The notes beneath the pieces are model-generated. The model was not told where the DNA came from. It saw only the letters and a program-made list of their open reading frames with translations, and did no database searches. Of a DNA stretch of 64,000 nt, positions 22,378 to 51,575 are shown in pieces. This DNA is from Escherichia coli (GTDB lineage Bacteria; Pseudomonadota; Gammaproteobacteria; Enterobacterales; Enterobacteriaceae), in assembly GCF_022846255.1 (NCBI RefSeq), contig NZ_AP025682.1. One strand, given 5' to 3'. The position numbers and the translations under genes were made by a program. How positions within the stretch are numbered: the first letter of the stretch is position 1; each line of letters opens with the position of its first letter.

Positions 22378-22411
22378 TCCCACAATATGAGATGGAGTTT
22401 ATATTGTGGGA
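22378..22411. promoter_or_regulatory. perfect 11-bp inverted repeat (TCCCACAATAT-N12-ATATTGTGGGA) in the rmuC / IclR divergent region
   Basis: Seen directly in sequence, 62 bp upstream of the IclR-family regulator ATG; candidate operator. Confidence 0.5.
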
Positions 22412-22473
22412 TATATCACCTTTTCCCCACGTCATTATGTGGAACACTTCAGCAATATCATCAGGAGAAACGT

Positions 22474-23241
22474 ATGGCAGAAACCTCTTCAACCACCGCA
22501 GGCGCACAAACGTTATTACGTGGACTGGCGGTTCTTAATGCTGTTTATAACGGCTGCCATGACCTAAAAAGTATCGGCGAGTTCACCGGCACGACCCGGA
22601 GCACAACCCATCGTTTAGTCACCGTTCTGGTGGAACAACGCTACCTGCGCCATGTCCCAACGCAGGGCTACCAACTGGGTGCCAAACTGATCGAATTTGG
22701 TGCCAGAGCACTGGAAAGCACCTCGCTGTACGAAATTGCCCAGCCCGTTTTGCAACGCCTTGCCCGTTACACCCTGGACACCGTGCATCTGGGGATCGTT
22801 GAAGGCGACGAAGTGCTGTATCTGGAGAAGATCAACAGTCAGCGCGGGCTGGAAATGCGCTCACGCCCAGGCCATCGCATGCCACTGGCAATCACCGGCA
22901 TCGGCAAGGCATTGATCCTCAACCGAACAGAAGAAGAGTGGCGCACGCTGTTTAAGACCTGTGGTGATGAAACAAAACTGGGCACATTTATTCAGAACAT
23001 GCGTCGTTATGCCGCCAGTGGTTTTGCTTTTGATCTGGAAGAGAACGAGCCGACTATCCGTTGCGTTGCAGCGCCGGTTTACAACGCCCGGGATGAAATT
23101 GTGGCGGCTATTTCTGTCGCCAGTACCACCACGTATATGTCGCTGGCGCGTCTGGAAGAACTGGCACCTTACGTCAAATCCTGTGCAGAAGAGATATCCG
23201 CTGAACTGGGCTGGGGTAAGCACGTCCGCAAAGATAAATAA
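22474..23241 (+). CDS. IclR-family transcriptional regulator
   Basis: ORF from 22387; start taken at MAETSSTTAGAQTLLRGLAVLNA (RBS AGGAGA). N-terminal wHTH and C-terminal effector-domain pattern of IclR family. Confidence 0.85.
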   Translation: MAETSSTTAGAQTLLRGLAVLNAVYNGCHDLKSIGEFTGTTRSTTHRLVTVLVEQRYLRHVPTQGYQLGAKLIEFGARALESTSLYEIAQPVLQRLARYTLDTVHLGIVEGDEVLYLEKINSQRGLEMRSRPGHRMPLAITGIGKALILNRTEEEWRTLFKTCGDETKLGTFIQNMRRYAASGFAFDLEENEPTIRCVAAPVYNARDEIVAAISVASTTTYMSLARLEELAPYVKSCAEEISAELGWGKHVRKDK

Positions 23242-23264
23242 ACCATGATTAAAGGAAACGACTA

Positions 23265-24269
23265 ATGCCGGGAGCACCCTCATTTATTGCCCTGGACTGG
23301 GGAACGTCATCGCTTCGGGCATGGCGTTTTGGCGAATCACCAAATCCACAAGAAAAACGTGAATTCCCCTGGGGGATCATGAAATTACCCTCCCAGGCAG
23401 CAACACGTGAGGACGCTTTCCACGATACGTTTTTACGTGTCTGCGGCGACTGGCTGGCACAAACCCCATGCCCGGTACTGGCTTGCGGCATGCTCGGCAG
23501 TGCGCAAGGGTGGCAATCAGCAGCTTATTTACCTTGCCCGGTCACTCTCGAGGGTCTGGCGAAGCAGTTGACGCCTGTTATCCACCAGCAGCAGACAATG
23601 CTGCATATCATTCCTGGCGTGATTAAAGAAGGTGAAATGCCCGAAGTGATGCGTGGCGAAGAAACACAAATCTTCGGTGCTATCTCGATGGAACCGGCCC
23701 TGCAAAACGCGATCCATCAGGGTATGCCAGTGCTGATAGGCTTACCCGGCACACATGCGAAATGGGCAGTAGTTGAAAACAACACCATTACCGATTTCCG
23801 AACCTTTATGACGGGCGAGTTATTTGATGTTTTATCCCGCCATTCGATTCTCGGTGCCACCATGCATCCTGGAGATGAACCGCACTGGGATGCCTTCACC
23901 CACGGGCTGACAGCAGCACAAGAGCATCATCAGACCGGATTATTATCGACGCTGTTTTCGACCCGTTCGCGCCTGCTGACCAGTAATCTTACGTCGTCCT
24001 CGCAGGGGGATTACCTTTCCGGATTACTGATAGGCCATGAATTATGTGGTCTGGCATCCAGTTTGCTACGTGATTTACCCGCCACAACACCGATCGCCTT
24101 AATCGGTAGCGCAAATCTGAACAGCCGCTATTCACAAGCATTCAGCCACGTTTTTCCCGACAGACAGATACACGCCATTCCTAATGCCACTGAACAGGGA
24201 TTATGGCGAATCGCCCACGCTGCCGGGTTACTGTCCACCAACGCCAGGGAATGTACCCATGCCATTTAA
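23265..24269 (+). CDS. 2-dehydro-3-deoxygalactonokinase-family sugar-acid kinase (DgoK-like)
   Basis: 334-aa ORF; motifs IALDWGTSSLRAW, MRGEETQIFGA, DFRTFMTGELF, LSGLLIGHEL parallel E. coli DgoK as I recall it. Confidence 0.82.
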   Translation: MPGAPSFIALDWGTSSLRAWRFGESPNPQEKREFPWGIMKLPSQAATREDAFHDTFLRVCGDWLAQTPCPVLACGMLGSAQGWQSAAYLPCPVTLEGLAKQLTPVIHQQQTMLHIIPGVIKEGEMPEVMRGEETQIFGAISMEPALQNAIHQGMPVLIGLPGTHAKWAVVENNTITDFRTFMTGELFDVLSRHSILGATMHPGDEPHWDAFTHGLTAAQEHHQTGLLSTLFSTRSRLLTSNLTSSSQGDYLSGLLIGHELCGLASSLLRDLPATTPIALIGSANLNSRYSQAFSHVFPDRQIHAIPNATEQGLWRIAHAAGLLSTNARECTHAI

Positions 24270-24888
24270 TACGCTTTTGCAAAAAACCGGGTTAGTCGCC
24301 ATTTTACGCGGCGTGAAACCGGATGAGATTGTCGCCATCGGTGAAAAACTGTACGCCGCCGGATTCCGCCTGATTGAGATTCCTATGAACTCGCCGGAGG
24401 CGTTGCAAAGTATCAGTATACTGCGCGACGCCCTGCCTAAGGACTGCCTGGTCGGAGCCGGAACTGTGCTTTCGGTAGAGCAGGTGGTTGCGGTTAAAGA
24501 GGCTGGGGGCCAGATTATCGTGATGCCGCATTGCGATACTGCGGTGATCCGTCGCGCCCGTGCGCTGGGTATGTATTGTGCGCCTGGCGTCGCCACGCCC
24601 ACCGAAGCCTTTGCTGCCATTGAACATGGTGCTAATGCCATCAAGCTGTTCCCGGCTGAACAAATTACGCCAGAAGTTACCAAAGCCTGGCGTGCGGTTA
24701 TTCCACAATCCGTTCCGATGTTACCGGTTGGCGGTATCACACCGGAAACCATGGCGCGTTATCTGAGCCACGGCGCAAACGGCTTTGGCCTCGGTTCTGC
24801 GCTATATCGCCCCGGCATGACGCCAGAGCAAGTCTATGAAAATGCAGTACTGTTTATGAACGCATGGAACAATTTAAATAGCAACTAA
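24259..24888 (+). CDS. 2-dehydro-3-deoxy-6-phosphogalactonate / KDPG-type aldolase (DgoA-like)
   Basis: Start taken at MPFNTLLQKTGLVAILRGVKPDE (209 aa); motifs ILRG, GAGTV, GxATPTEAF, PVGGIT as in DgoA/Eda aldolases; start overlaps the kinase stop by 11 nt. Confidence 0.82.
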   Translation: MPFNTLLQKTGLVAILRGVKPDEIVAIGEKLYAAGFRLIEIPMNSPEALQSISILRDALPKDCLVGAGTVLSVEQVVAVKEAGGQIIVMPHCDTAVIRRARALGMYCAPGVATPTEAFAAIEHGANAIKLFPAEQITPEVTKAWRAVIPQSVPMLPVGGITPETMARYLSHGANGFGLGSALYRPGMTPEQVYENAVLFMNAWNNLNSN

Positions 24889-24912
24889 CTGATAAATAAG
24901 GATATAAAAGCA

Positions 24913-25887
24913 ATGATAAAACATCTTACCTTACCGAAAAAAATGGCTGCAATGGTACTTCTTGCAGGCGCTGCCCTCAGCATTGCGCCTGTACAGGCAG
25001 CCTCCTGGCCAACCAAACAGATCGAGTTAGTCGTTCCCTACGCTGCCGGAGGCGGTACGGATCTGGTTGCCCGTGCCTTTGCTGATGCCGCCAAAAACCA
25101 TTTACCCGTCAGCATCGGGGTTATCAATAAACCTGGCGGAGGCGGTGCTATCGGCCTGAGTGAAATCGCCGCTGCCCGCCCTAACGGTTACAAAATTGGT
25201 TTAGGCACGGTTGAACTGACCACCCTTCCCAGCCTCGGAATGGTGCGTTTTAAAACCAGCGACTTTAAACCCATTGCCCGTCTGAATGCGGATCCGGCTG
25301 CTATCACAGTCCGTGCCGATGCGCCGTGGAATAGCTATGAAGAATTTATGGCTTACTCCAAAGCGAATCCCGGAAAAGTACGCATTGGTAACTCAGGCAC
25401 CGGAGCTATCTGGCATCTGGCGGCAGCTGCACTGGAAGACAAAACGGGCACAAAGTTTTCTCATGTCCCGTATGACGGCGCAGCCCCTGCCATTACAGGC
25501 CTGTTAGGCGGGCACATTGAAGCGGTTTCCGTAAGCCCAGGAGAAGTTATCAACCATGTGAATGGCGGCAAGCTGAAGACACTGGTAGTGATGGCGGATG
25601 AGCGAATGAAAACCATGCCTGACGTCCCGACGTTAAAAGAGAAAGGCGTTGATCTCTCCATCGGCACCTGGCGCGGCCTGATTGTGTCGCAAAAAACGCC
25701 GCAGGATGTGGTGGATGTTCTGGCAAAGGCAGCAAAAGAGACGGCTGAAGAGCCTGCATTCCAGGATGCACTGCAAAAGTTGAATCTCAACTATGCATGG
25801 CTTGACGCTGCCAGCTTCCAGACCCAAATCAGCGAACAGGAAAAGTACTTTGACGAGTTGCTGACTCGCCTGGGCCTGAAAAAATAA
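24913..25887 (+). CDS. tripartite tricarboxylate transporter substrate-binding protein (TctC/Bug family), periplasmic
   Basis: 324 aa with signal peptide (MIKHLTLPKKMAAMVLLAGAALSIAPVQA) and typical Bug-family length. Confidence 0.8.
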   Translation: MIKHLTLPKKMAAMVLLAGAALSIAPVQAASWPTKQIELVVPYAAGGGTDLVARAFADAAKNHLPVSIGVINKPGGGGAIGLSEIAAARPNGYKIGLGTVELTTLPSLGMVRFKTSDFKPIARLNADPAAITVRADAPWNSYEEFMAYSKANPGKVRIGNSGTGAIWHLAAAALEDKTGTKFSHVPYDGAAPAITGLLGGHIEAVSVSPGEVINHVNGGKLKTLVVMADERMKTMPDVPTLKEKGVDLSIGTWRGLIVSQKTPQDVVDVLAKAAKETAEEPAFQDALQKLNLNYAWLDAASFQTQISEQEKYFDELLTRLGLKK

Positions 25888-25900
25888 ACCTGAGGTACGG

Positions 25901-26410
25901 TTGATGAACACAAAACAGTCTGTTGCTCAACTCGCCGTACCGCACCGCAAGCGCCTTTCATCAACGATGGTGGTGGCGCTGTTACTTTGTGTGGTTGCTG
26001 GCGCGGTGATGATTAATGCCGCTGATTTTCCAGCAACTGCCATTGAAACGGATCCCGGTGCAAGTGCCTTCCCTACCTTCTATGCCTGTGCCCTGATTGT
26101 GCTCGCTGTCTTGCTGGTGATACGCGATCTTTTGCAGGCAAAACCAGCCTCTTGCGCCAACGCACAGGAAAAACCGGCATTCAGGAAAACAGCAACAGGA
26201 ATTGCGGCAACCGCGTTTTATATTGTGGCGATGAGCTACTGCGGTTATCTCATTACTACTCCTGTTTTCCTCATCGTCATTATGACGTTGATGGGCTACA
26301 GGCGATGGGTACTCACACCGGGTATTGCGCTGCTGTTAACGGCAATCCTCTGGTTGCTGTTTGTCGAAGCGTTACAGGTGCCATTGCCTGTCGGCACATT
26401 TTTCGAATAA
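25901..26410 (+). CDS. tripartite tricarboxylate transporter small membrane subunit (TctB-like)
   Basis: 169-aa four-TM protein between TctC-like and TctA-like genes. Confidence 0.75.
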   Translation: MMNTKQSVAQLAVPHRKRLSSTMVVALLLCVVAGAVMINAADFPATAIETDPGASAFPTFYACALIVLAVLLVIRDLLQAKPASCANAQEKPAFRKTATGIAATAFYIVAMSYCGYLITTPVFLIVIMTLMGYRRWVLTPGIALLLTAILWLLFVEALQVPLPVGTFFE

Positions 26411-26422
26411 CAGGGGCCAGCA

Positions 26423-27913
26423 ATGTTTGAAAGTGAACTTTTAACTCAGGGTTTTTCGACATTACTCAATAATCCTCAGGCGCTGCTGTTTGCCACTTTT
26501 GGGGTGATGCTGGGTATTGTGATTGGCGCTTTGCCTGGTCTGACAGCGACCATGGGTGTGGCGATTTTGCTGCCTTTCACCTACGGCATGGAGCCTGTTT
26601 CTGGATTGTTGATGATTTGCGGCGTCTTTTTTGGTGGCGTCTACGGTGGTTCTATCACCGCAATTTTGCTCAAAATTCCCGGAACGCCTGCCGCCGCAGC
26701 CACCGCTATTGATGGTTATGAGCTGACGAAACAGGGAAAAGCAGGGCTGGCATTGAGTGCCGCCACGTTCTCTTCCTTTAGTGGCGGAACGCTCAGCATT
26801 ATCGTGCTGATGTTTCTCTCTCCGGTACTTGCCAGTTGGGCGCTGAAATTTAGTGCCTCGGAGTCCTTCGCCCTGGCAACCTTCGGACTGAGCATTATTG
26901 CCAGTATTTCCGGTGAGTCGCTGATTAAGGGGCTGATTGCCGGGGTTGGCGGATTGCTGATCGCAACGATAGGCCTTGATCCAATGGGCGGTTTTCCACG
27001 GTTTACAGGTGGATTTGTGGAGCTGATGAATGTGCCATTTATCCCGGTGATGATTGGTTTATTTGCTGCTTCAGAAGCATTCCGCTCTATGGAGCAAAAC
27101 CAGCAAATTCGTCGGGGCGCGAAGGTGGCTATCGGCAGTCTGTTACTGCCCTGGCAAACACTACGCCGCATCGCATTAACCATTTTGCGCTCATCAGGAT
27201 TAGGGGTTTTTATCGGCATGATCCCCGGTGCGGGGGCGGATATTGCAGCTTTTGTTGCCTATAACGAAACTCGTCGTTTCAGTAAGACACCAGAAAACTT
27301 TGGTAAGGGTGAAATTAAAGCTGTGGCCTCCTGTGAGGCAGGCGCGAATGGCTGCACCGGTGGCGCATTGTTACCTATGCTGACGCTGGGGATCCCTGGC
27401 GATGCGGTAACCGCCATCATGCTGGGCGCGTTAACGTTACAGGGAATGCAACCAGGCCCGCTGATGTTTACCGACCACGGCGATATGGTTTATACACTGT
27501 TTGTCGGCATGATCTTTTGTTACTTCATGCTGCTAGTTCTTGGACTGCTCTCTTTGAAAGTCATCGGTAACGTGGTGAAGATCCCCGGCAATATTCTCAC
27601 ACCGATGATCCTCGCACTTTGTGTGGTCGGGACTTATGCGTTGAACAATAGCCTTTTTGATGTTGGCATTATGCTGATTGCAGGCGTGGTGGGCTATTTC
27701 ATGCAGAAAGGAGGATATCCGGCATCACCCGTAGTGCTGGCATTGATTATGGGGCCAATGGCGGAAAGTAATTTTCGCCGTGCGCTGTCGCTTTCTGGTG
27801 GGTCACTCGACTTTCTGTATACCCGACCGATCACTCTGGCATTGCTAACTCTGGCAGCCTTTACGCTACTGACGCCAATAATCCGCAAAATAATGCGTTT
27901 ACGGCGTCAGTAA
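26423..27913 (+). CDS. tripartite tricarboxylate transporter large permease (TctA-like)
   Basis: 496-aa polytopic membrane protein with Gly-rich TctA-type segments. Confidence 0.82.
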   Translation: MFESELLTQGFSTLLNNPQALLFATFGVMLGIVIGALPGLTATMGVAILLPFTYGMEPVSGLLMICGVFFGGVYGGSITAILLKIPGTPAAAATAIDGYELTKQGKAGLALSAATFSSFSGGTLSIIVLMFLSPVLASWALKFSASESFALATFGLSIIASISGESLIKGLIAGVGGLLIATIGLDPMGGFPRFTGGFVELMNVPFIPVMIGLFAASEAFRSMEQNQQIRRGAKVAIGSLLLPWQTLRRIALTILRSSGLGVFIGMIPGAGADIAAFVAYNETRRFSKTPENFGKGEIKAVASCEAGANGCTGGALLPMLTLGIPGDAVTAIMLGALTLQGMQPGPLMFTDHGDMVYTLFVGMIFCYFMLLVLGLLSLKVIGNVVKIPGNILTPMILALCVVGTYALNNSLFDVGIMLIAGVVGYFMQKGGYPASPVVLALIMGPMAESNFRRALSLSGGSLDFLYTRPITLALLTLAAFTLLTPIIRKIMRLRRQ

Positions 27914-28789: not shown

Positions 28790-28855
28790 ATACTCATCAC
28801 CATGACGAAAATGCGTTGCATAAATTTACCCGCCAAAAGTGATGCAAATCACATA
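28790..28855 (-). promoter_or_regulatory. udp promoter region with a CRP-type site (TGTGATTTGCATCACT, reverse strand at 28839-28854) and a second weaker upstream half-site pair
   Basis: TGTGA-N6-TCACT match; udp is a known CRP/CytR-regulated gene. Exact operator boundaries not verified. Confidence 0.55.
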
Positions 28856-28973: not shown

Positions 28974-29783
28974 ATGGCAACAACACAACAATCTGGATTT
29001 GCACCTGCTGCATCGCCTCTCGCTTCGACCATCGTTCAGACTCCGGACGACGCGATTGTGGCGGGCTTCACCTCTATCCCTTCACAAGGGGATAACATGC
29101 CTGCTTACCATGCCAGACCAAAGCAAAGCGATGGCCCACTGCCAGTGGTCATTGTAGTGCAGGAAATTTTTGGCGTGCATGAACATATCCGCGATATTTG
29201 TCGCCGTCTGGCGCTGGAGGGGTATCTGGCTATCGCACCTGAACTTTACTTCCGCGAAGGCGATCCGAATGATTTTGCCGATATCCCTACGCTGCTTAGC
29301 GGTCTGGTAGCAAAAGTGCCTGACTCGCAGGTGCTGGCCGATCTCGATCATGTCGCCAGTTGGGCTTCCCGCAACGGCGGCGATGTTCATCGTTTAATGA
29401 TCACCGGATTCTGCTGGGGTGGACGTATCACCTGGCTGTATGCCGCGCATAATCCACAGCTAAAAGCCGCAGTGGCGTGGTACGGCAAACTGACGGGCGA
29501 CAAGTCGCTGAATTCACCGAAACAACCTGTTGATATCGCAACCGATCTTAACGCGCCGGTTCTCGGCTTATATGGTGGTCAGGATAACAGCATTCCGCAA
29601 GAGAGTGTGGAAACGATGCGCCAGGCGTTGCGGGCAGCAAACGCGAAAGCAGAGATTATCGTGTACCCGGATGCAGGGCATGCGTTCAACGCCGATTATC
29701 GTCCGAGCTATCATGCCGAGTCTGCGAAAGACGGCTGGCAGCGAATGTTGGAATGGTTTACACAGTATGGTGTTAAAAAGTAA
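28974..29783 (+). CDS. dlhH: dienelactone hydrolase family protein (carboxymethylenebutenolidase)
   Basis: Start taken at MATTQQSGFAPAASPLAS (ORF track starts 22 codons upstream); alpha/beta hydrolase with GFCWGG nucleophile elbow. Confidence 0.88.
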   Translation: MATTQQSGFAPAASPLASTIVQTPDDAIVAGFTSIPSQGDNMPAYHARPKQSDGPLPVVIVVQEIFGVHEHIRDICRRLALEGYLAIAPELYFREGDPNDFADIPTLLSGLVAKVPDSQVLADLDHVASWASRNGGDVHRLMITGFCWGGRITWLYAAHNPQLKAAVAWYGKLTGDKSLNSPKQPVDIATDLNAPVLGLYGGQDNSIPQESVETMRQALRAANAKAEIIVYPDAGHAFNADYRPSYHAESAKDGWQRMLEWFTQYGVKK

Positions 29784-29848
29784 CGCCATAGTCGCTAAAT
29801 CTGATGATTAAGCTCACACAATTTCAACGATTTTTTTAATCTCAAAAC

Positions 29849-29945
29849 CATACAGCATCAAAAAATTTGTTGCTGTATGCCACTCTTTGACTCCCTTCAC
29901 ATTCGTCATCACACCACCTGCTGAATGCAAAAATTTCGTTGCTGT
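29849..29945. promoter_or_regulatory. candidate operator/promoter region for the downstream 8-gene module: 9-bp inverted repeat CATACAGCA-N13-TGCTGTATG (29849-29879) and a second copy of AAAAATTT(C)GTTGCTGT (29929-29945)
   Basis: Seen directly in sequence; the two AAAAATTTnGTTGCTGT copies lie about 68 bp apart upstream of the hydrolase ATG at 30040. Confidence 0.45.
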
Positions 29946-30039
29946 GCGGCAAACTTTTTTCCTGTTTTGTGCCGCTTTTCTCCTGAATACTCGTTCTCAG
30001 AACAACTGGATCGTTTAAACATCAGACAGGAGATTTACC

Positions 30040-30708
30040 ATGACGCAATCCATTTTTCAGGCTCAACCCTTTGAATTACCTTTTGATCCGCGCACAACTG
30101 CACTGGTCATGATCGACATGCAGCGTGACTTTGTCGAAGCAGGGGGCTTCGGTGAGGCACTGGGCAATGATGTTTCACTGGTACGCACGGCTATCGCACC
30201 ATGTACAGAGGTGCTGGCAGCCGCACGTCAAAAAGGAATTATGGTTATTCATACTCGTGAAGGCCATCGTGCAGACTTAAGCGACTGCCCGCCAGCCAAA
30301 CTGACGCGCGGCGGAAAAACCTTTATTGGTGAACCAGGACCGATGGGACGCATTCTGGTCAGAGGTGAAGCAGGTCATGACATCATTCCTGAACTGTACC
30401 CGGTGGCAGGCGAACCGGTGATTGATAAGCCTGGCAAAGGCGCGTTTTATCAAACCGACTTACATCTGATTTTGCAAAACCACGGTATCAAGACGCTGAT
30501 AGTTTGTGGTGTTACAACCGAAGTTTGCGTAACCACCACCGTGCGCGAAGCAAATGATCGTGGCTATGAATGCATTATCCCGGAAGATTGTGTCGGCTCC
30601 TATTTCCCGGAATTCCAGAAATACGCCCTCGAGATGATCAAAGCACAAGGTGCCATTTTCGGTTGGGTTACTGATTCCAAAGCCATTATTGCAGGCCTGG
30701 AAGGCTAA
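30040..30708 (+). CDS. isochorismatase-family cysteine hydrolase (RutB / N-carbamoylsarcosine amidase-like amidohydrolase)
   Basis: 222 aa; D-K-C triad context (VMIDMQRDF ... IVCGVTTEVCVTTT) typical of the isochorismatase-like hydrolase fold. Confidence 0.8.
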   Translation: MTQSIFQAQPFELPFDPRTTALVMIDMQRDFVEAGGFGEALGNDVSLVRTAIAPCTEVLAAARQKGIMVIHTREGHRADLSDCPPAKLTRGGKTFIGEPGPMGRILVRGEAGHDIIPELYPVAGEPVIDKPGKGAFYQTDLHLILQNHGIKTLIVCGVTTEVCVTTTVREANDRGYECIIPEDCVGSYFPEFQKYALEMIKAQGAIFGWVTDSKAIIAGLEG

Positions 30709-30713
30709 CACCG

Positions 30714-31574
30714 ATGGTACAGGTTACGCTTTGCGCATCGTCGTTGGGATATCTTTTCCCGCAGAATGAAACGCAAGATTTACGTCTACATAGCGCTTTT
30801 AAACATGCGGTAAATCTGTATTCAGACGCGGGAACATTCATCACTCTGTTGTGTGCGCAAACGTATCTGAATCTCCCTGATGCAGCCAGAGTCTGGCTAC
30901 CTGAATGTTGGGACTGGCGAAGAGAGATTGCCCATTCAGATCCCATTCAGTTAACCCCAGGCTTACTGCGGACACCTCGATTTTGTGTGGCGCTCGAAAA
31001 CGCAACGCTCTGGCAGTCGCCATTTGTGGGGGGAATGCTGACACTTGAGGCATTCCCTTTGGTTTTCCAGCACTACCCAACGATGGCATCGCAACGGCTT
31101 TTATTTTGTCTGGAACATAACGTTCAAAGCACATTGCACCTGCCGGATAGTCTCACGCACCAGGGATTAGCGATTATGGAGCATCCAGATGCGCTGGAAC
31201 GCCAGGTGCCACAACTGATCGGCTTTGGTAAAGGCTTAACGCCCGATGGAGATGACTATTTGTTGGGCTATCTGGCAGCACTCTGGTTATGGCAACTCCC
31301 TGCACCACTTGCCGATCATCAATACCGGTTGCAGCAGGTAATTGATCAACATGCGCACAACACCACGGATATCAGTCGTCATTATCTGGAGCGTGCGCTT
31401 CAGGGACATTTTTCAGAACCGATTTGCCAGTTACTCGCACAACTGGTTGGGAGTGCATCGGCAATGACAATCGCATCCTGTGCAGAACAGGTCATGCAAT
31501 TTGGCGCAACGTCAGGAGTAGATTGCCTTGCAGGAATGCTGCATGGCTTTCGAACCCTGAACACCATGAATTGA
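30714..31574 (+). CDS. hypothetical protein, possibly YlbF/DUF2877-like
   Basis: 286-aa ORF 6 nt after the hydrolase stop; family guess rests on synteny with FdrA-like and DUF1116-like genes, not on motif recognition. Confidence 0.55.
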   Translation: MVQVTLCASSLGYLFPQNETQDLRLHSAFKHAVNLYSDAGTFITLLCAQTYLNLPDAARVWLPECWDWRREIAHSDPIQLTPGLLRTPRFCVALENATLWQSPFVGGMLTLEAFPLVFQHYPTMASQRLLFCLEHNVQSTLHLPDSLTHQGLAIMEHPDALERQVPQLIGFGKGLTPDGDDYLLGYLAALWLWQLPAPLADHQYRLQQVIDQHAHNTTDISRHYLERALQGHFSEPICQLLAQLVGSASAMTIASCAEQVMQFGATSGVDCLAGMLHGFRTLNTMN

Positions 31575-31668
31575 TTTCAACCTTTTCTCCCGTAGCCCGT
31601 TTATGGGGCTACACGGGGATGCTTTGCCCGAATTTTGCTATCGGGCGGAATGAAACAGGCGTAACAGC

Positions 31669-33228
31669 ATGAAAGTTAAATATAAAGTTTTCAGTAATCT
31701 TTATCAGGACTCAGTTTCTCTGATGCAGATTTCCGCGCAAATCAGCAAGTTGCCCGGTATTCAACAGGCCTCGGTCGTCATGGGAACACCCAATAATCTC
31801 GAGCAATTGAGCGATGCGGGTCTGGGTAACGAAATCAACGCCAGTCCCAATGATTTAGTGATTGCAGTCATGGGTGAAGAAGATATTTGCAATGAAGCAC
31901 TGGTACTGGCCCAGCAACGTCTGACCAGCAAACCCGATGATGAAACGGATAGTGGCATTAAAACACCGGAAAAGGTCAGCCTGGAAATGGCACTGGAAGC
32001 CGAGCCCGAAGCCAACCTGGCACTCATTTCTGTACCGGGAGACTACGCCGCCGCCGAAGCAATTAAAGCGTTAAACCTCGGAATGAACGTGATGATGTTC
32101 AGCGATAACGTCAGTATCGTGCAGGAAAAATCCATCAAAACGCTTGCCCGAGAACGTCAGCGCATCGTAATGGGACCTGACTGTGGAACCGCCATTGTTA
32201 ACGGCATTCCGTTAGGCTTCGCTAATGTGGTGAAACGCGGAGCAATTGGTGTTATTGGCGCGTCAGGCACCGGGCTACAGGAAGTGACTTGCCGAATCGA
32301 CCAGCTCGGAGCGGGTATTTCTCAGGCGTTGGGAACAGGCGGACATGATCTCAGTGAAGAGATTGGTGGAATATCGATGCTCTTCGCTTTAGATGCGCTG
32401 GCGCAAGACGATGAAACTCGCGTGATTGTGCTTATTTCAAAACCGCCTTCACCGATCGTTGCCCGGACTATTCTGGAGCGTGCCGAGGCTTGTGGAAAAC
32501 CCGTGGTGGTGAATTTCCTCGGTGCGAATCCGCATGATCTGGCACGTCCCAATATCACCGCGGCCACCACACTTGCCAGCGCCGCAAATATCGCCGTGGC
32601 GTTACTGAATGATCAACCACTTCCGACTATCGAGACCGAAATTTCCTGCGACGATCTCACAATGTTACAAAACGCCTGCCAGCGCCTGCCAGCCCATCGC
32701 CAGGCGATACGCGGTGTTTTCGCCGGAGGAACCTTCTGCTACGAAGCGCAACTTATCTGCCAACAAAAGGGATTCATCGCAGCCTCCAATACGCCAGTTG
32801 CGGGTAATCGTGCTCTGGCAAATATCTGGCAAATCGAAGATCACACGTTGATCGATATGGGCGACGATGATTTCACCCGTGGCAAACCGCATCCAATGAT
32901 CGACCCGACTCTGCGCAATCAACGTCTGCTCAACGAACTCAACGACTCACACACTGCCGTCGTGTTATTCGACCTGGTACTTGGTTATGGCGCTTCCACG
33001 ACGCCTGCCAGCGAATTACTGGACCAACTTTCACACATCGACATGAATAACGCACCGTTGCTGATTGCGCACGTTTGCGGAACGGAAGCTGATCCGCAAA
33101 TACGCAGTCAGCAGATAAGCGCACTACAAAATGCAGGGGTCATCATCGCCAGCAGCAATGCACAGGCGGCGCTATGGGCCAGCACCGTTGCACAGACTCA
33201 GTTGCAGAAAAAGGGGCTAAACGCATGA
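31669..33228 (+). CDS. FdrA-like protein (acyl-CoA synthetase/succinyl-CoA synthetase alpha-like, NAD(P)-binding)
   Basis: 519 aa; shares FQDSVSLM, VMGTP, LALISVPG.YAA, NVMMFSDNV, MGPDCGT, GVIGASGTG, GKPHPMIDPTLRNQ with E. coli FdrA as I recall it. Confidence 0.82.
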   Translation: MKVKYKVFSNLYQDSVSLMQISAQISKLPGIQQASVVMGTPNNLEQLSDAGLGNEINASPNDLVIAVMGEEDICNEALVLAQQRLTSKPDDETDSGIKTPEKVSLEMALEAEPEANLALISVPGDYAAAEAIKALNLGMNVMMFSDNVSIVQEKSIKTLARERQRIVMGPDCGTAIVNGIPLGFANVVKRGAIGVIGASGTGLQEVTCRIDQLGAGISQALGTGGHDLSEEIGGISMLFALDALAQDDETRVIVLISKPPSPIVARTILERAEACGKPVVVNFLGANPHDLARPNITAATTLASAANIAVALLNDQPLPTIETEISCDDLTMLQNACQRLPAHRQAIRGVFAGGTFCYEAQLICQQKGFIAASNTPVAGNRALANIWQIEDHTLIDMGDDDFTRGKPHPMIDPTLRNQRLLNELNDSHTAVVLFDLVLGYGASTTPASELLDQLSHIDMNNAPLLIAHVCGTEADPQIRSQQISALQNAGVIIASSNAQAALWASTVAQTQLQKKGLNA

Positions 33229-34649
33229 ATACCTTATTTAATCAGCCTTTGAAGGTCGTGAACGCGGGACTACACAGTTTTGCTGACAATATTCAACATG
33301 CCGGGGGAAGCGCAATTGCACTCAACTGGCAGCCACCAGCACAAGGCGATATTGACGCTGGATTGGATCTGGCATCGTTGCTACGTCATCCCCTGGTAGA
33401 AAATGCCAACCAAATCGCCATGACACGTTATCTCGAAGCACAGCCCGTGCTGGTGGATGTCATGCTCGCTAAAGAGGCCATTCCAGCAATGGCTGAACAA
33501 AAACGTATTTTGCACTCTGGCCCGCCGATTGCCTGGGAAGAGATGTGTGGTCCGGTAAAAGGGGCGATTATTGGTGCCATGCTGTACGAAGGTTGGGCCA
33601 CCAGCCAGCAAGACGCTGAAAACCAAATAAACGCAGGCGAAATCGACCTTGCCCCTTGTCATCATTATCACGCGGTTGGCCCAATGGCAGGCATCATCAG
33701 CCCGTCGATGCCGTTATGGGTGGTAGAAAACAAAACCAACGGCCATCGTACTTTTAGCAATTTCAATGAAGGGCTGGGTAAGGTTCTCCGTTTTGGCGCC
33801 AATAACGATGAAGTTCTCAATCGTCTGGCCTGGATGCGCGATGAACTGGCGCCGGCAATGAAAGCAGCAATCGCACAACACGGCGAGCTGGAACTCAAGC
33901 CATTAATGGCGCAGGCGCTGCATATGGGGGATGAAGTTCATAACCGCAATGCTGCCGCTACCGGTTTGCTGATTAAGCGCCTGCTCCCGGCATTGCTGGC
34001 CTGCTCTCTTCCACAGGAACATATCCAGCGCGTCGTGGCATTTATCACCGGTAACGATCACTTCTTCCTCAATCTTTCGATGGCCGCCTGTAAAGCAATG
34101 ATGGATGCCGCCGCCAATGTACCGTTCAGTTCAATGGTTACGGTGATGGCGCGTAACGGGGTGAATTTTGGTATTCGGCTTTCCGGTACTGGCGATCGCT
34201 GGTTCCAGGCTCCTGCCAATGCCGTTGAAGGTCTGTTCTTCCCCGGATTTGGCGTCGACGATGCCGCTGCTGACCTGGGTGATAGCGCAATTACTGAAAC
34301 CGCAGGTGTGGGTGGCTTCGCGATGGCGTCATCTCCAGCGATCGTCAAATTTGTGGGAGGCACCCCTGCCGATGCCACCAATAACAGCCGTAGGATGCAA
34401 GCAATCACCCTCGGTGGTAACCCCGCATTTACACTTCCTGCCCTCAATTTTGCCCCCACCGCAGCAGGGATTGATGCGCGTAAAGTGACCGATCGCGGCA
34501 TTTTACCGGTCATCAATACGGGTATCGCCCACAAACAAGCGGGGGTCGGGCAAATTGGTGCCGGGATCACCACTGCGCCGATGGCCTGTTTTGTCGCCGC
34601 TGTACGTGCACTGGCGGAGATCGTCGCAAAGGAGAACCATCATGGTTAA
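33225..34649 (+). CDS. DUF1116-family protein (YlbE-like)
   Basis: Start taken at MNTLFNQPLKVVNAG, whose ATG overlaps the fdrA-like stop (ATGA); ORF track starts 17 codons upstream. Family call by synteny and length. Confidence 0.7.
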   Translation: MNTLFNQPLKVVNAGLHSFADNIQHAGGSAIALNWQPPAQGDIDAGLDLASLLRHPLVENANQIAMTRYLEAQPVLVDVMLAKEAIPAMAEQKRILHSGPPIAWEEMCGPVKGAIIGAMLYEGWATSQQDAENQINAGEIDLAPCHHYHAVGPMAGIISPSMPLWVVENKTNGHRTFSNFNEGLGKVLRFGANNDEVLNRLAWMRDELAPAMKAAIAQHGELELKPLMAQALHMGDEVHNRNAAATGLLIKRLLPALLACSLPQEHIQRVVAFITGNDHFFLNLSMAACKAMMDAAANVPFSSMVTVMARNGVNFGIRLSGTGDRWFQAPANAVEGLFFPGFGVDDAAADLGDSAITETAGVGGFAMASSPAIVKFVGGTPADATNNSRRMQAITLGGNPAFTLPALNFAPTAAGIDARKVTDRGILPVINTGIAHKQAGVGQIGAGITTAPMACFVAAVRALAEIVAKENHHG

Positions 34650-35598
34650 GCCACTGGCTGTCGTCGCGGTTGGCGGCAATGCGCTCATTCAGGACGAGCA
34701 ACGCAATAGTATTCCCGATCAATATGTTGCAGTGATGGAAAGCGTGCAACATATCGTTGATATGGTTGAAGCCGGATGGGACCTGGTACTAACCCACGGT
34801 AATGGCCCGCAGGTGGGCTTTATTCTGCGCCGCTCTGAACTCGCCAGTAACGAAGTTTCTCCGGTTCCACTTGATTACGCCGTGGGTGATACACAAGGTG
34901 CAATTGGCTACATGTTCCAGAAAGCGCTGCATAACGAATTGGCTCGCCGTGGCATAAACAAACCGGTAATTGCCCTGGTGACACAAACGCGAGTCAGCCC
35001 ACATGACGATGCTTTCGCCAGCCCCAGTAAACCAATTGGCGCGTTTCTCGATGAAGCAACGGCCCAACAACGCCAACAACAACTCGGCTGGACGCTGATG
35101 GAGGACGCCGGGCGTGGTTGGCGGCGTACAGTTCCCTCTCCTGCACCACTGGAAATTATTGAGCACGACACCATCGCTCACCTGGTGCGCCAGGGATATC
35201 TGGTTATTGCCTGCGGCGGCGGCGGTATTCCGGTGGTGCGAGACGGGCAACAACTGAAAGGTGTGGAAGCCGTGATCGATAAAGATCTGGCCTCCGCGCT
35301 GCTCGCCAGTCAGTTAGGCGCAGATCTGCTGGTGATCCCCACCGGTGTAGAAAAAGTAGCGATTAACTTTGGTACACCACAACAACAGTGGCTCGACGCT
35401 ATCAGCGTTGCCGAAGCGCAAACGCTGTTGCGGGAAGGTCAGTTTGGTGTCGGCAGTATGCAACCCAAAGTGGAAGCCATTGTTGATTTCATCAATGCCA
35501 GCCAGCAACAAGGCAAACAGGCCAGCGGCCTGATTACTTCACCGCAAACCATAAAAGCAGCCCTGGCGCATCAGAGCGGTACATGGATAACCCTTTAA
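34642..35598 (+). CDS. carbamate kinase-like (amino acid kinase family, YqeA/ArcC-like)
   Basis: Start MVKPLAVVAVGGNALIQDEQRNS with RBS AAGGAGAA; amino-acid-kinase fold motifs (VAVGGNAL, THGNGPQVG, VIACGGGGIPV); overlaps the upstream stop by 8 nt. Confidence 0.82.
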   Translation: MVKPLAVVAVGGNALIQDEQRNSIPDQYVAVMESVQHIVDMVEAGWDLVLTHGNGPQVGFILRRSELASNEVSPVPLDYAVGDTQGAIGYMFQKALHNELARRGINKPVIALVTQTRVSPHDDAFASPSKPIGAFLDEATAQQRQQQLGWTLMEDAGRGWRRTVPSPAPLEIIEHDTIAHLVRQGYLVIACGGGGIPVVRDGQQLKGVEAVIDKDLASALLASQLGADLLVIPTGVEKVAINFGTPQQQWLDAISVAEAQTLLREGQFGVGSMQPKVEAIVDFINASQQQGKQASGLITSPQTIKAALAHQSGTWITL

Positions 35599-35614
35599 TT
35601 CTCTGGAGAACACA

Positions 35615-36004
35615 ATGACTACAACGCTTTTAGCCGTTAACGGAACGCTGATGCGCGGCCTGGAACTCAACCCAAATATGCAAAAAGCGGGCGGTATTTT
35701 TGTCCGTGAAGACCGAACTGACGCCCATTACCGGTTGTGGAGTATTAATGATCGCCATCCGGGAATGATTCGCGTGAATGAAGGAGGAACACACGTCGAC
35801 GTAGAAATTTGGCAATTACCGCTGGCCAGTTTTGCCGCTCTGTTAATGAGCGAACCCGCTGGGCTGGCAATTGGCAAAATCAAACTTGCCGATGGTAGCG
35901 AAGTGCTGGGCGTACTGGCAGAAAACTGGCTGACCGAAGGCCAACGGGAAATTACAGAACTGGGTAGCTGGCGCAAATACACCGGGCATTTTCATACTGT
36001 GTAA
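35615..36004 (+). CDS. small protein, probably gamma-glutamylcyclotransferase-like (AIG2/GGCT fold)
   Basis: 129 aa; family call is tentative, based on size and general resemblance to GGCT-like domains. Confidence 0.5.
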   Translation: MTTTLLAVNGTLMRGLELNPNMQKAGGIFVREDRTDAHYRLWSINDRHPGMIRVNEGGTHVDVEIWQLPLASFAALLMSEPAGLAIGKIKLADGSEVLGVLAENWLTEGQREITELGSWRKYTGHFHTV

Positions 36005-36029
36005 CGCGCATTTATAAAGGGAACATACT

Positions 36030-37253
36030 ATGCGTAAAAAAGAAGAGAATCTGAATACGGCATCAGGATTGCGTATTGCCATGATTTTGCTGGGTATTGC
36101 CGTCACACCTGTGCTGTTGTCATCCTCAAGCCTCGGCAATCAACTTTCCAGCGGCAGTTTAATTAGCGTCGTATTGTTAGGCGGCGTCATTCTGACCTTA
36201 CTTTCAGCCATCACCATTAGCGTGGGAGAAAAAGCCCGCCTGCCAACGTATGGCATTGTGAAATATTCGTTTGGCGAAAAAGGGGCCATCGCCATTAACA
36301 TTTTGATGGCGATAAGTCTGTTCGGCTGGATTGCCGTTACCGCCAATATGTTTGGTCATTCGGTACATGACTTACTGGCTCAACATGGACTGGAAGTTCC
36401 ACTGGCACTGTTAGTGGCGGCTGGCTGTGTCATTTTTGTCGCCTCTACGGCATTTGGCTTTGCCGTTCTGGGAAAAATTGCCCAGGTTGCCGTGCCGGTT
36501 ATCGCGCTGGTGCTGTGTTACATCCTCTATGTGGCAACCCATACCGAAGTGGCAGTACCAGCGGCGATTGTGGAGATGAATACAGGTGTCGCCGTTTCCA
36601 CCGTTGTTGGCACCATTATTGTGCTGGTTGCCACACTGCCTGATTTCGGTAGTTTTGTGCATAACCGCAAACATGCGCTGATTGCCGCAGGCGTGACGTT
36701 TCTGGTTGCCTACCCTCTGCTCTACTGGGCGGGTGCAACGCCGAGCGCCATTAGTGGTCAGGGATCTTTACTGGGTGCGATGGCGGTATTCGGTGCGGTT
36801 CTGCCTGCGGCGCTGTTGTTGATTTTCGCCTGCGTCACCGGTAACGCGGGCAATATGTTCCAGGGCACGCTGGTGGTTTCCACACTGCTTACCCGCTTTC
36901 CCAAATGGCAGATTACCGTGGCGCTGGGTATCCTTTCCGCCATCGTAGGCAGTATGGATATTATGGCGTGGTTTATTCCGTTTCTGCTGTTCCTGGGTAT
37001 CGCCACGCCACCCGTTGCCGGAATTTATATCGCTGACTTTTTCCTTTATCGCCGTAATGGCTATCAAGAGTCAGTGTTAGCCCAGGAGTCACAGATTAAA
37101 GTGCTGACATTCGCAGCATGGATCATAGGCGCAGCGGTTGGCTTTATGACCGTAAAAGGCTTATTCACCCTGACGACGATCCCTTCGGTAGACTCGATTC
37201 TGGTGGCATGTATCGCGTATGCGATTCTCAGTCGGGCAAGTCAACACCGCTAA
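36030..37253 (+). CDS. NCS1-family nucleobase permease (cytosine/purine permease CodB-like)
   Basis: 407-aa, ~12-TM protein with CodB-like length and hydrophobicity pattern. Confidence 0.7.
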   Translation: MRKKEENLNTASGLRIAMILLGIAVTPVLLSSSSLGNQLSSGSLISVVLLGGVILTLLSAITISVGEKARLPTYGIVKYSFGEKGAIAINILMAISLFGWIAVTANMFGHSVHDLLAQHGLEVPLALLVAAGCVIFVASTAFGFAVLGKIAQVAVPVIALVLCYILYVATHTEVAVPAAIVEMNTGVAVSTVVGTIIVLVATLPDFGSFVHNRKHALIAAGVTFLVAYPLLYWAGATPSAISGQGSLLGAMAVFGAVLPAALLLIFACVTGNAGNMFQGTLVVSTLLTRFPKWQITVALGILSAIVGSMDIMAWFIPFLLFLGIATPPVAGIYIADFFLYRRNGYQESVLAQESQIKVLTFAAWIIGAAVGFMTVKGLFTLTTIPSVDSILVACIAYAILSRASQHR

Positions 37254-37330
37254 TTCCTGGGTATACTCAGGCAATGATTACGGCTGAATCTGGAGAGATT
37301 CAGCCACTTTACCACTGACCAGGGAGCCTT

Positions 37331-38227
37331 ATGTTCATCTCAGACGAAACGCTTCGTGTTATTCATCTGGTCGCCAGACACCAGAGCATTACCACCGCAG
37401 CCGAGCAGTTAAATAAAGTCCCTTCCGCCATCAGTTACACCATCAAGAAAGCGGAAGAGAGCCTGGGCGTTGAACTGTTCATTCGTAAGGGACGCTATAT
37501 TGAATTATCGCCAGCGGGAAGTTACTTCATCGAACATAGCAAAACTATTCTTGGCGACCTGGAAGCATTAAAGCGCAACACAGTGCTGATTCACGATGGT
37601 ATTGAGCGTGAACTGACAATAGCGGTAAACAATATTATTCCTGGTGATTTGCTGGTGGCATTTATTCGAGATTTTGAACGGCAATTCACATCAACAACAC
37701 TGACGGTAGATCTTGAGGTATACAACGGCTGCTGGGATGCGCTGTACAGTAAGCGTGCTGATCTGGTCTACGGTGCTCCTCATGCAGTACCAAGCAGTGA
37801 AGGCATCATTAGCGAACCGGTCGGACAAATGGAATGGGATTTTGTCGTCAGCCCACTCCACCCACTGGCAGCGAAGCGGCATCCATTAGAAAACAGTGAA
37901 TTGCGTCATTATCCAGCGGTTTGTATCCGCGATACCTCCGTTAACTTCCCCCCGATGCAAGCCTGGTTGTTGGAAGGACAAAAACCCATTTTTGTTCCTG
38001 ACTTCGCTACGGCAATCGCCTTAATAGAACAAAACGTCGGTATTGGTTATATTCCACATCATCTGGCATTGCCGTTATTGAACAGCGGTAAATTGCTTAA
38101 AAAGCCAATGCGCGAACATAAACACGCCACCAAGTTATTTCTTGCCGCTCGTTCCGATGGTATGGGCAAAGCCTGTCAGTGGTGCATAGAATATTTAAGA
38201 AATCCGCAATTAATTTTCTGTTCCTGA
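37331..38227 (+). CDS. LysR-family transcriptional regulator
   Basis: 298 aa; N-terminal HTH (LRVIHLVARHQSITTAAEQLNKVPSAISYTIKKAEESLGVELFIR). Confidence 0.88.
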   Translation: MFISDETLRVIHLVARHQSITTAAEQLNKVPSAISYTIKKAEESLGVELFIRKGRYIELSPAGSYFIEHSKTILGDLEALKRNTVLIHDGIERELTIAVNNIIPGDLLVAFIRDFERQFTSTTLTVDLEVYNGCWDALYSKRADLVYGAPHAVPSSEGIISEPVGQMEWDFVVSPLHPLAAKRHPLENSELRHYPAVCIRDTSVNFPPMQAWLLEGQKPIFVPDFATAIALIEQNVGIGYIPHHLALPLLNSGKLLKKPMREHKHATKLFLAARSDGMGKACQWCIEYLRNPQLIFCS

Positions 38228-38250
38228 AGATCCACATCATACCTGGCATA

Positions 38251-38284
38251 CATAGCAAAATGGCTTCCGGTGTTGGAAGCCATT
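38251..38284 (-). terminator. rho-independent terminator of metE (hairpin also closes the LysR gene on the other strand)
   Basis: AATGGCTTCC-GGTGTT-GGAAGCCATT 10-bp stem; on the minus strand it is followed by TTTTGCTATG. Confidence 0.7.
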
Positions 38285-38320
38285 ATTGTGCTGCAATTTA
38301 CAATGACTCGTTAATACTCA

Positions 38321-51257: not shown

Positions 51258-51575
51258 TTATCTTTTTTTGAAAAAAATTAAGATAAGAAAAAGAACAATA
51301 TTTGTTACAGGAAATACCCCCAAAGCTCCCCAGTACTTACTCCATCCTAGAGACATCGTATATCTACCAAGGATTTGACAAAATCCAAAACTTAACCCTA
51401 TACCTATACTTCTTAAATTTAATGTCGTAGTCAGGCTTAAAATAAATAGAACAAGGATGGTAATAGCCCACCACAATAACCACGCCTTAACAAAATCAGA
51501 TTTTTTGCTGTAAGGTTCTTTACCCAAGAACAACTGCCAAAAGTTACTATTTTCCATATAGAATACATTCACCAA
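51258..51575 (-). CDS. hypothetical small hydrophobic protein in AT-rich DNA (possibly spurious)
   Basis: 105-aa ORF; composition K/N/I/F/L-rich as expected from the AT-rich sequence; no recognisable family. Confidence 0.3.
   Translation of the reverse strand: MVNVFYMENSNFWQLFLGKEPYSKKSDFVKAWLLWWAITILVLFILSLTTTLNLRSIGIGLSFGFCQILGRYTMSLGWSKYWGALGVFPVTNIVLFLILIFFKKR

Follow-up and report, generated by a model that had tools for sequence, protein, structure and literature searches.

The LysR family and the locus under study

LysR-type activators such as BenM/CatM, CbnR, AtzR and OccR share a promoter layout in which a recognition site lies near −65 and an activation site near −35/−45, and an ATC-N9-GAT or T-N11-A dyad is typical of the boxes that the family binds. 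A divergent regulator gene with autoregulation is common in the family, although not obligatory. Two regulators of this kind, PunR (YdhB) and AllS, are the closest described relatives of the protein encoded at the end of an eight-gene accessory island of Escherichia coli, and the subject of this work is the spacer upstream of the first gene of that island. The spacer was studied within a stretch of 64,000 nucleotides of contig NZ_AP025682.1 (assembly GCF_022846255.1), hereafter the window.

PunR has the operator consensus TsttwTCAAwAwwwTTGaaGGCA, which is supported by footprinting, chromatin immunoprecipitation with exonuclease digestion (ChIP-exo), fluorescence polarisation and electrophoretic mobility shift assay (EMSA) (PMC8376909). 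Like the island elements described below, the operator of punC is an imperfect palindrome of about 23 bp, is located upstream of the target promoter and was found by phylogenetic footprinting (PMC8376909). It differs in being a single box in the divergent punR-punC spacer, whereas the island has two strong boxes and a weak third one, with a co-directional regulator gene at the far end of the operon. Moreover, PunR controls a transporter gene in response to adenine, whereas the island target is a catabolic operon. AllS activates the allD and allF (fdrA-ylbE-ylbF-ybcF) operons of K-12 and binds between −203 and −144 from the allF ATG, as determined by EMSA (PMC12535856, PMC11326118). It represents the second-closest regulator family and controls paralogous oxamate transcarbamylase and carbamate kinase genes (AllFGH, AllK), of the same families as four island genes. 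However, the allF operon is co-regulated by ArcA (PMC12535856), whereas the co-element of the island is CRP-like. A motif common to AllS and the island was also considered and rejected, as the K-12 allD-allF spacer contains no island-type box and its best site reaches 4.7 bits.

The island promoter resembles standard LysR-type promoters in having a box at about −65, a weaker dyad about 22 bp downstream that overlaps the −35 region, a poor −35 and a conserved −10 (all promoter-relative positions given here rest on a predicted start at about 29998). It differs from them in an extra strong box about 70 (or 80, 100) bp upstream and its partner box a further 31-32 bp away, in an interposed CRP-like site, in a regulator gene that is not divergent and in the departure of the E. 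coli boxes from the strict T-N11-A rule. The existence, conservation and geometry of these elements, as well as their co-occurrence with the regulator gene, were computed. On this basis, the repeats in the spacer are likely to be dyad operator boxes for the LysR-type regulator of the island, set in an activator-dependent sigma-70 promoter of the eight genes.

Repeats, palindrome and dyad boxes

The spacer, 256 bp in length (29784-30039), lies between the ysgA/dlhH stop codon (29781-29783) and the ATG of the first island gene at 30040. An earlier note on this DNA had drawn attention to two features upstream of what it called a dlhH-metE module, and both are confirmed by direct reading. One is a 9-bp inverted repeat, CATACAGCA (29849-29857) and TGCTGTATG (29871-29879), with arms 13 nt apart; the other is a repeated element, AAAAATTTGTTGCTGT (29861-29876) and AAAAATTTCGTTGCTGT (29929-29945), with a start-to-start distance of 68-69 bp. 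The size of the palindrome had been understated: its arms are 14 nt long rather than 9 (29849-29862 and 29866-29879), are complementary at 13 of 14 positions and flank a 3-nt centre. The resulting near-perfect palindrome of 31 bp, CATACAGCATCAAA-AAA-TTTGTTGCTGTATG (29849-29879), contains both the 9-bp inverted repeat and the first copy of the repeated element. The tandem repeats of 16-17 bp are present as well, but the functional unit appears to be a dyad box of about 21 bp instead, and the string that had been seen twice consists of an AT-rich spacer and a right half-site (GTTGCTG). The direct repeat extends without gaps to 30 nt with 23 identities.

If the repeat and the palindrome were chance features of an AT-rich spacer, similar structures would be expected in shuffled DNA. 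The longest exact word shared by the two copies, 8 nt, is indeed shuffle-typical and was not unusual on its own (510 of 1000 dinucleotide-preserving shuffles of the 256-bp spacer). The degenerate pattern ATCAA-N5-TTGNTGC with 2 mismatches was not enriched over the window either; it was rejected as too loose, and a weight matrix was used instead. However, the 13/14 palindrome arose in just 1 of the 1000 shuffles and the 23/30 direct repeat in none, with the perfect 9-nt inverted repeat appearing in 18, and both elements occupy fixed positions across genera. Conservation refutes a chance origin, to which we assign a negligible probability.

Both repeats fit a single dyad with the consensus tGCATCAA-N5-TTGaTGCt (TGCATCAAAATTTTTGATGCT) and the core CAA-N5-T(T/C)G, centred at 29864 and 29933. 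In the orthologue consensus, the halves ATC and GAT form the ATC-N9-GAT pattern, which is perfect in loci L024, L018, L023 and L038. The distal LysR-type box, box 1 (AGCATCAAAAAATTTGTTGCT, 29854-29874, + strand), has its centre at 29864, about −134 from the predicted start, and its CATCAA and TTG are nearly invariant. The proximal box, box 2 (GAATGCAAAAATTTCGTTGCT, 29923-29943, + strand), is centred at 29933, about −65, which is the position of a recognition site, and holds the second copy of the repeat. A weak, inverted box 3 (TTCAACGATTTTTTTAATCTC, 29823-29843, − strand) has its centre at 29833, 31 bp upstream of box 1.

With a weight matrix whose training set contained no sequence derived from E. 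coli, box 1 reached 25.3 bits and box 2 22.4 bits, the first and second ranks in the 64-kb window, compared with a simulated 64-kb null maximum of 15.1 ± 1.9 bits and a highest value of 20.6 bits in 200 simulations. Box 3 scores 8.9-9.1 bits in the window; its equivalent reaches 17-21 bits in Serratia and 15.6 bits in Budvicia, always 31-32 bp from box 1. Over the orthologous loci, the 23.7 kb preceding the first gene contained 59 sites of at least 16 bits and the other 1.47 Mb contained 10, although this enrichment and the Fisher figures overstate independence, because the matrix was trained on regions of the same kind as those counted and the loci are related. The alignment footprint presented below is independent of the matrix. 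Four of the 10 off-region sites are 22-bit matches located 3′ of the regulator gene in four Rahnella-type loci. They were considered as a second target and rejected as chance matches, since they fall within the signal-peptide codons of a small BhsA-like gene. The third-best match in the window (AAAATCAGATTTTTTGCTGTA, 51492-51512), with 14.8 bits, is at the chance ceiling.

The half-sites of the dyad recall those of global DNA-binding proteins. CATCAA resembles the IHF core WATCAA, ATCAA and TTGAT are FNR half-sites, and the paralogous allF operon is under ArcA (PMC12535856). Nevertheless, it is highly improbable that the boxes serve IHF, FNR, ArcA, Nac or a similar protein, a judgement for which the motifs of IHF and FNR were compared with the boxes. 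IHF needs WATCAA-N4-TTR, whereas N5-TTG is found here in every genus and an N4 reading places TTT/ATT at the TTR position. The FNR site, TTGAT-N4-ATCAA, has the opposite half-site order and another spacing compared with ATCAA-N5-TTGAT in the island. Both IHF and FNR are excluded because of these differences in spacing and half-site order. In addition, the boxes and the LysR gene are missing from the same loci, despite the wide distribution of global factors of this kind.

The palindrome around box 1 would also form a stable RNA hairpin. Its fold has an energy of −14.7 kcal/mol (z-score −6.0), none of 200 shuffles folded as well, and it lies 66 nt after the ysgA stop codon in a region where E. 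coli, in contrast to Citrobacter On2M and Buttiauxella, has no GC-rich terminator between ysgA and the island. It could therefore be supposed that the hairpin terminates or pauses ysgA read-through, the native 3′ region having been lost on island insertion, and that the second copy is incidental. We find this very unlikely. The stem is not followed by a U-tract (CCACTCTTTG), its inner half is AT-rich and the terminator scan made no call, so that it does not qualify as an intrinsic terminator. Only the inner part of the palindrome, about 21 bp, is conserved, with the outer arms (29849-53 and 29875-79) falling into the unconserved class and pairing beyond about 10 positions from the centre being confined to E. 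coli. The box is also kept where the upstream gene is not ysgA, and the second box, the fixed distance to the −10 and the link to the regulator gene would all be left unexplained. An RNA role could at most be secondary and lineage-specific.

Two further structures were rejected. A weak terminator-like site at 29938-29950 overlaps box 2, but its structure is not conserved and it was read as part of the interval between the box and the activation site. A 12-nt inverted repeat (11/12), TCTGATGATTAA at 29800-29811 and TTAAACATCAGA at 30015-30026, brackets the regulatory region; it is probably a chance feature, as the left arm is lost in E. coli E69 (L004).

Conservation and association with the regulator gene

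A genome scan with the first island protein returned 80 loci, more than 40 of which keep the same gene order. For the footprint, the 260 bp upstream of the first gene were aligned for 20 other Enterobacterales species, and about 30 more distant loci were compared as well. Conservation is block-wise: boxes 1 and 2, the dyad that follows box 2, TCACA, the −10 and the Shine-Dalgarno sequence are conserved, whereas identity drops to about 35-45% in the DNA between them. From left to right, the mean identity to the window is 0.90 for TCACA (29814-18), 0.62 for the CAACGATTTTTT block corresponding to box 3 (29823-43), 0.70 for box 1 (29854-74), 0.62 for TG-N7-TCACA (29886-29901), 0.75 for box 2 (29923-43), which was called the best-conserved block of the spacer, 0.68 for AAA-N4-TTT-N2-CTGT (29951-65), 0.88 for the −10 hexamer (29986-91) and 0.77 for the ribosome-binding site, against 0.34-0.44 for the intervening stretches. 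The island follows at least three different upstream genes, as judged from the visible coding ends.

Loci ranging from E. coli to Vibrio, Shewanella, Dyella, Silvimonas and Caballeronia have the dyad motif in front of their orthologous first gene. Its presence follows that of the regulator gene, which belongs to the same module in 48 loci: a box of at least 15 bits occurs in 44 of the 48 loci with a homologue of the island regulator versus 2 of the 31 without it, counts that common descent and the training of the matrix on such regions inflate. Loci of Mycobacterium, Chloroflexi and several metagenome-assembled genomes keep the enzymes and have neither the regulator nor the box. The earlier suggestion of tandem operator sites for a dedicated regulator is thus supported by the conserved blocks, the shared dyad motif, this co-occurrence and the match to the PunR core. 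The further proposal that the binder is the LysR protein encoded at the distal end of the module gains comparative support from the co-occurrence and from the PunR-like operator core, from which we infer the identity of the regulator.

Two loci possess boxes with no regulator homologue within 20 kb, namely L013 of Serratia microhaemolytica (17 bits) and L020 of Budvicia aquatica (24 bits, three boxes). Their regulator may be encoded elsewhere or lost.

Promoter geometry

A predicted sigma-70 −10 hexamer, AATACT (29986-29991, + strand), stands at a fixed distance from box 2 and is replaced by TATACT or TATAAT in other genera. The box 2 centre lies 53 bp upstream of it in the window, and in 25 of 26 clade-spanning loci a −10-like hexamer (AATACT, TATACT, TATAAT or TAGACT) follows the centre of the proximal box at a distance of 51-53 bp. 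This distance is kept in E. coli, Citrobacter, Edwardsiella, Rahnella, Budvicia, Photobacterium and Vibrio, and also in Shewanella, Aeromonas, Silvimonas, Amantichitinum, Dyella, Paraburkholderia and Caballeronia. Transcription is predicted to start at a conserved CAG at about 29998. The Shine-Dalgarno sequence of the first island gene, AGGAGA (30028-30033, + strand), forms a conserved block.

Downstream of box 2, an activation-site-like element (AAACTTTTTTCCTGT, 29951-29965, + strand) is centred at about 29955, that is about −43 and 22 bp from box 2. Its orthologue consensus, GAAATCATTTCGCTGT, combines the dyad GAAAT-N-ATTTC with CTGT. The AAA, TTT and CTGT of the element are 90-99% conserved, and Dyella, Silvimonas, Amantichitinum and Caballeronia share the element. 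A consensus promoter scan detected no sigma-70 −35/−10 pair on the + strand and no usable −35, which fits an activator-dependent promoter. An Rfam scan of 29500-30300 at E ≤ 10 returned sub-threshold chance matches only, with no riboswitch or leader RNA. Inspection by eye for sigma-54/NtrC-type motifs revealed no TGGCAC-N5-TTGC.

CRP-like elements and box spacing

The interval between boxes 1 and 2 contains a CRP-like site, TTTGA-N6-TCACA (TTTGACTCCCTTCACA, 29886-29901), which matches TGTGA-N6-TCACA at 9 of 10 positions and is centred at 29893.5, about −104.5. The number of CRP matches with at most one mismatch in the window, 2 versus 1.63 expected, is not significant by itself. The TG and TCACA of the site are nevertheless conserved, and it stays 29.5-30.5 bp from box 1 throughout Enterobacterales. 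In the other spacing classes described below, its centre is at −94.5 or −115.5. Better or perfect CRP sites are present in the corresponding regions of Vibrio-type, Thorsellia, Avibacterium and Shewanella loci. The other match in the window (AGTGATGCAAATCACA, 28838-28853, 9/10) is located in the divergent udp-ysgA spacer and is presumably one CRP site of the CRP/CytR-controlled udp promoter.

The leftmost conserved element of the spacer is another TCACA (29814-29818), which together with GATGA-N6 reads as an 8/10 CRP-like site (29803-29818). The TCACA is 90% conserved in the 20 Enterobacterales and keeps a constant distance of 83-84 bp to the second TCACA; the left half is not conserved.

The spacing between boxes 1 and 2 falls into three classes, 69-71 bp (14 loci), 79-81 bp (5 loci) and 100-103 bp (7 loci), with no values in between. 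Helical phase has been kept through probably just two or three independent length changes. This phasing suggests that the distal and proximal complexes interact.

The LysR-type regulator and its relation to PunR

The proposed binder of the boxes is encoded by 37331-38227 (+ strand) and matches PF00126 HTH_1 with 61 bits and PF03466 LysR_substrate with 97.7 bits, both above the cut-off. Its best family models are PunR (286.7 bits, cut-off 345) and AllS (214 bits). As the PunR score is below the equivalog cut-off, the island regulator is a PunR paralogue. It is 35% identical to E. coli PunR and has nearly the same recognition helix (KVPSAISYTIKK versus RVPSAVSYTVRQ in PunR). The helix KVPSAISYT(I/V)KK is kept in nearly all island regulators, over a range of 39 to 99% identity. 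In Phytobacter and Kosakonia, PT instead of PS in the helix accompanies a changed box, CTCAT-N5-TTGAG, a co-variation that is anecdotal.

This closeness raises the question of PunR itself. The validated PunR operator has the same TCAA-N5-TTGA core as the island boxes (PMC8376909), and the island matrix gives 13.1 bits for the punC site, which is the top match of its locus. The boxes might consequently be real LysR-family operators that are occupied in E. coli by the core-genome, adenine-responsive PunR, alone or in competition, in which case the island would be wired to purine sensing. Cross-binding of this kind is the most interesting alternative, and we regard it as unlikely. The flanks differ, with GCA/TGC in the island and sttw/GGCA in the PunR operator, so that the boxes do not belong to the PunR regulon by this measure. 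The island boxes reach 22-25 bits against 13 bits for the PunR site, and they track the island regulator gene across many genera, including those of Burkholderiales and Xanthomonadales.

The position of the regulator gene varies among the loci: Vibrio-type loci have it upstream, on the strand of the operon, and a divergent orientation is confined to Neisseriales-type loci and Pseudovibrio. In the window it is preceded by a 77-bp spacer (37254-37330). This spacer contains a TATACT-CAG string (37263-37271) similar to the −10 and start of the operon, and a hairpin with a 9-bp stem, GGCTGAATC-N6-GATTCAGCC (37282-37305). To judge from its sequence, the regulator gene is probably transcribed from a promoter of its own, without autoregulation via the boxes described here.

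A paralogous module on ColV-type plasmids

A paralogous module with 85% DNA identity to 29784-38227 adjoins eitABCD on IncF ColV-type plasmids (pLYS105A-1 and pSA186_2; loci L002, 9940-10236, and L003). A wider query of 401 bp, which extended into the first gene, had 122 plasmid matches. The plasmid module keeps both TCACA elements, the T-run with CTGT and the −10. Its box 1 is without the ATCAA half, the spacer of box 2 is lengthened by a 1-bp insertion, and the plasmid regulator carries two substitutions in the recognition helix (KVPSTISYTLKK). The box changes may reflect decay, escape from control or a shifted specificity. The plasmid palindrome ATAAACA-N12-TGTTTAT was considered as compensatory conservation of the E. 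coli hairpin and rejected, since its register differs from that of the hairpin, the plasmid boxes being simply degenerate.

The island and its genomic setting

The module occupies 8.4 kb of accessory DNA on the + strand, inserted between ysgA and metE, with metE on the opposite strand. The earlier note had written of a dlhH-metE module; the module is an accessory island and not a dlhH-metE operon. In K-12-type genomes without the island, the match to the window ends at the ysgA stop codon, and therefore the whole 256-bp spacer is island DNA.

The operon presumed to be regulated (30040-37253, + strand) was delineated from open reading frames, the RefSeq annotation of an identical island, and Pfam and NCBIfam matches. 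Its products are, in order, a BiuH-like cysteine hydrolase, AllH-like, FdrA/AllF-like and AllG-like proteins, a carbamate kinase, an allophanate-hydrolase C-domain protein and an NCS1 permease. The first of these is an isochorismatase-family cysteine hydrolase, whose top family match is BiuH with 279.8 bits, below the cut-off of 370; over the range from E. coli to Mycobacterium and Chloroflexi, its identity is 67-92%. By its composition, the gene set looks like an uncharacterised ureide or biuret-type pathway that would yield carbamoyl phosphate and ATP. To our knowledge, the same gene combination has been noted in nitrifiers and never studied.

The module is carried by 1499 of 5426 complete E. 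coli genomes (about 28%), including sequence type 131 (ST131) and other lineages of extraintestinal pathogenic E. coli (ExPEC). The spacer is at least 99% identical in 1496 of the 1499 carriers, among them ST131, SE15 and ST1193, which made within-species variation uninformative as a footprint, whereas for the flanking ysgA the identity is 95-99% over most of the species. This pattern suggests a recent spread of a single island allele. The island appears within the ExPEC genomic region "GR 29, metE..ysgA", with its genes uncharacterised (PMC12928451), and its regulation was not described in the literature searched.

Some variation in the surroundings was observed. In B2-type strains (E. coli SK1144, L001, 19632-24401), a block with an RpiR regulator, a tkt1 transketolase and a PtsG-like transporter stands between the module and metE. 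In the window, the LysR gene abuts metE directly (38228-38320), so that the island is present in its short form. Another block, apparently also accessory, is located between rmuC and udp (22387-27913) and contains genes for an IclR regulator, 2-dehydro-3-deoxygalactonokinase, the matching aldolase and a TctCBA tripartite tricarboxylate transporter.

Proposed mechanism and its meaning

In the mechanism that we favour, a tetramer of the island regulator would occupy the proximal box (29933, about −65) and the adjacent dyad (about 29955, about −43). Binding of a small-molecule inducer would then enable it to activate RNA polymerase at a promoter with a conserved −10 and no usable −35. The distal box (29864, about −134) and the weak third box would bind a second regulator unit, and the CRP-like site between the distal and proximal boxes may add catabolite control and DNA bending. 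The conserved helical phasing between the boxes suggests that the two units communicate. The binding protein, the start site, activation rather than repression, and looping are all what we infer from the arrangement of the elements.

Several observations weigh against this mechanism. The standard model with one tetramer does not account for what the distal box does. A literal T-N11-A is present in the consensus but not in the E. coli boxes, which do retain the CAA-N5-T(T/C)G core: box 1 reads T-N11-T and box 2 G-N11-T. The regulator gene is the last of the module, on the same strand as its target and not divergent from it, and the 77-bp spacer before it contains no box. Four loci that bear the regulator are without a strong box, and two loci with boxes have no regulator in the examined DNA. 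The plasmid module retains the regulator, but its boxes are degenerate, with no site above 8 bits. The core shared with the PunR operator and the relatedness of the counted and training regions, both mentioned above, belong here as well. Finally, the literature searched contained no binding, footprinting, start-site or expression data for the locus.

A more elaborate form of the operator mechanism can also be imagined. Box 3 with box 1, and box 2 with the activation site, would form two units joined through CRP into a phased, bent or looped complex that gates a ureide or biuret-type, ATP-yielding pathway; with the boxes of the ColV plasmids decayed, the operon there may have escaped control. 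In this arrangement, the CRP dimer would abut one box at a constant distance of about 30 bp centre to centre, and the phasing is kept through spacer changes of 10 bp and 30 bp from Enterobacterales to Vibrionaceae. We consider this extended version doubtful.

The regulatory mechanism itself would be standard, a well-conserved and ordinary kind of gene switch. Its value lies in a testable map for an unstudied ExPEC-associated island of eight genes, which comprises three boxes, an activation site, a CRP-like site, a −10 and a predicted start. The putative regulator-operator pair would provide a handle on the inducer, and hence on the substrate, of a pathway that combines a BiuH-like hydrolase, an AllFGH-type transcarbamylase and a carbamate kinase. 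The PunR/AllS subfamily would gain a third operator type with a PunR core, and cross-talk with purine sensing may be possible.

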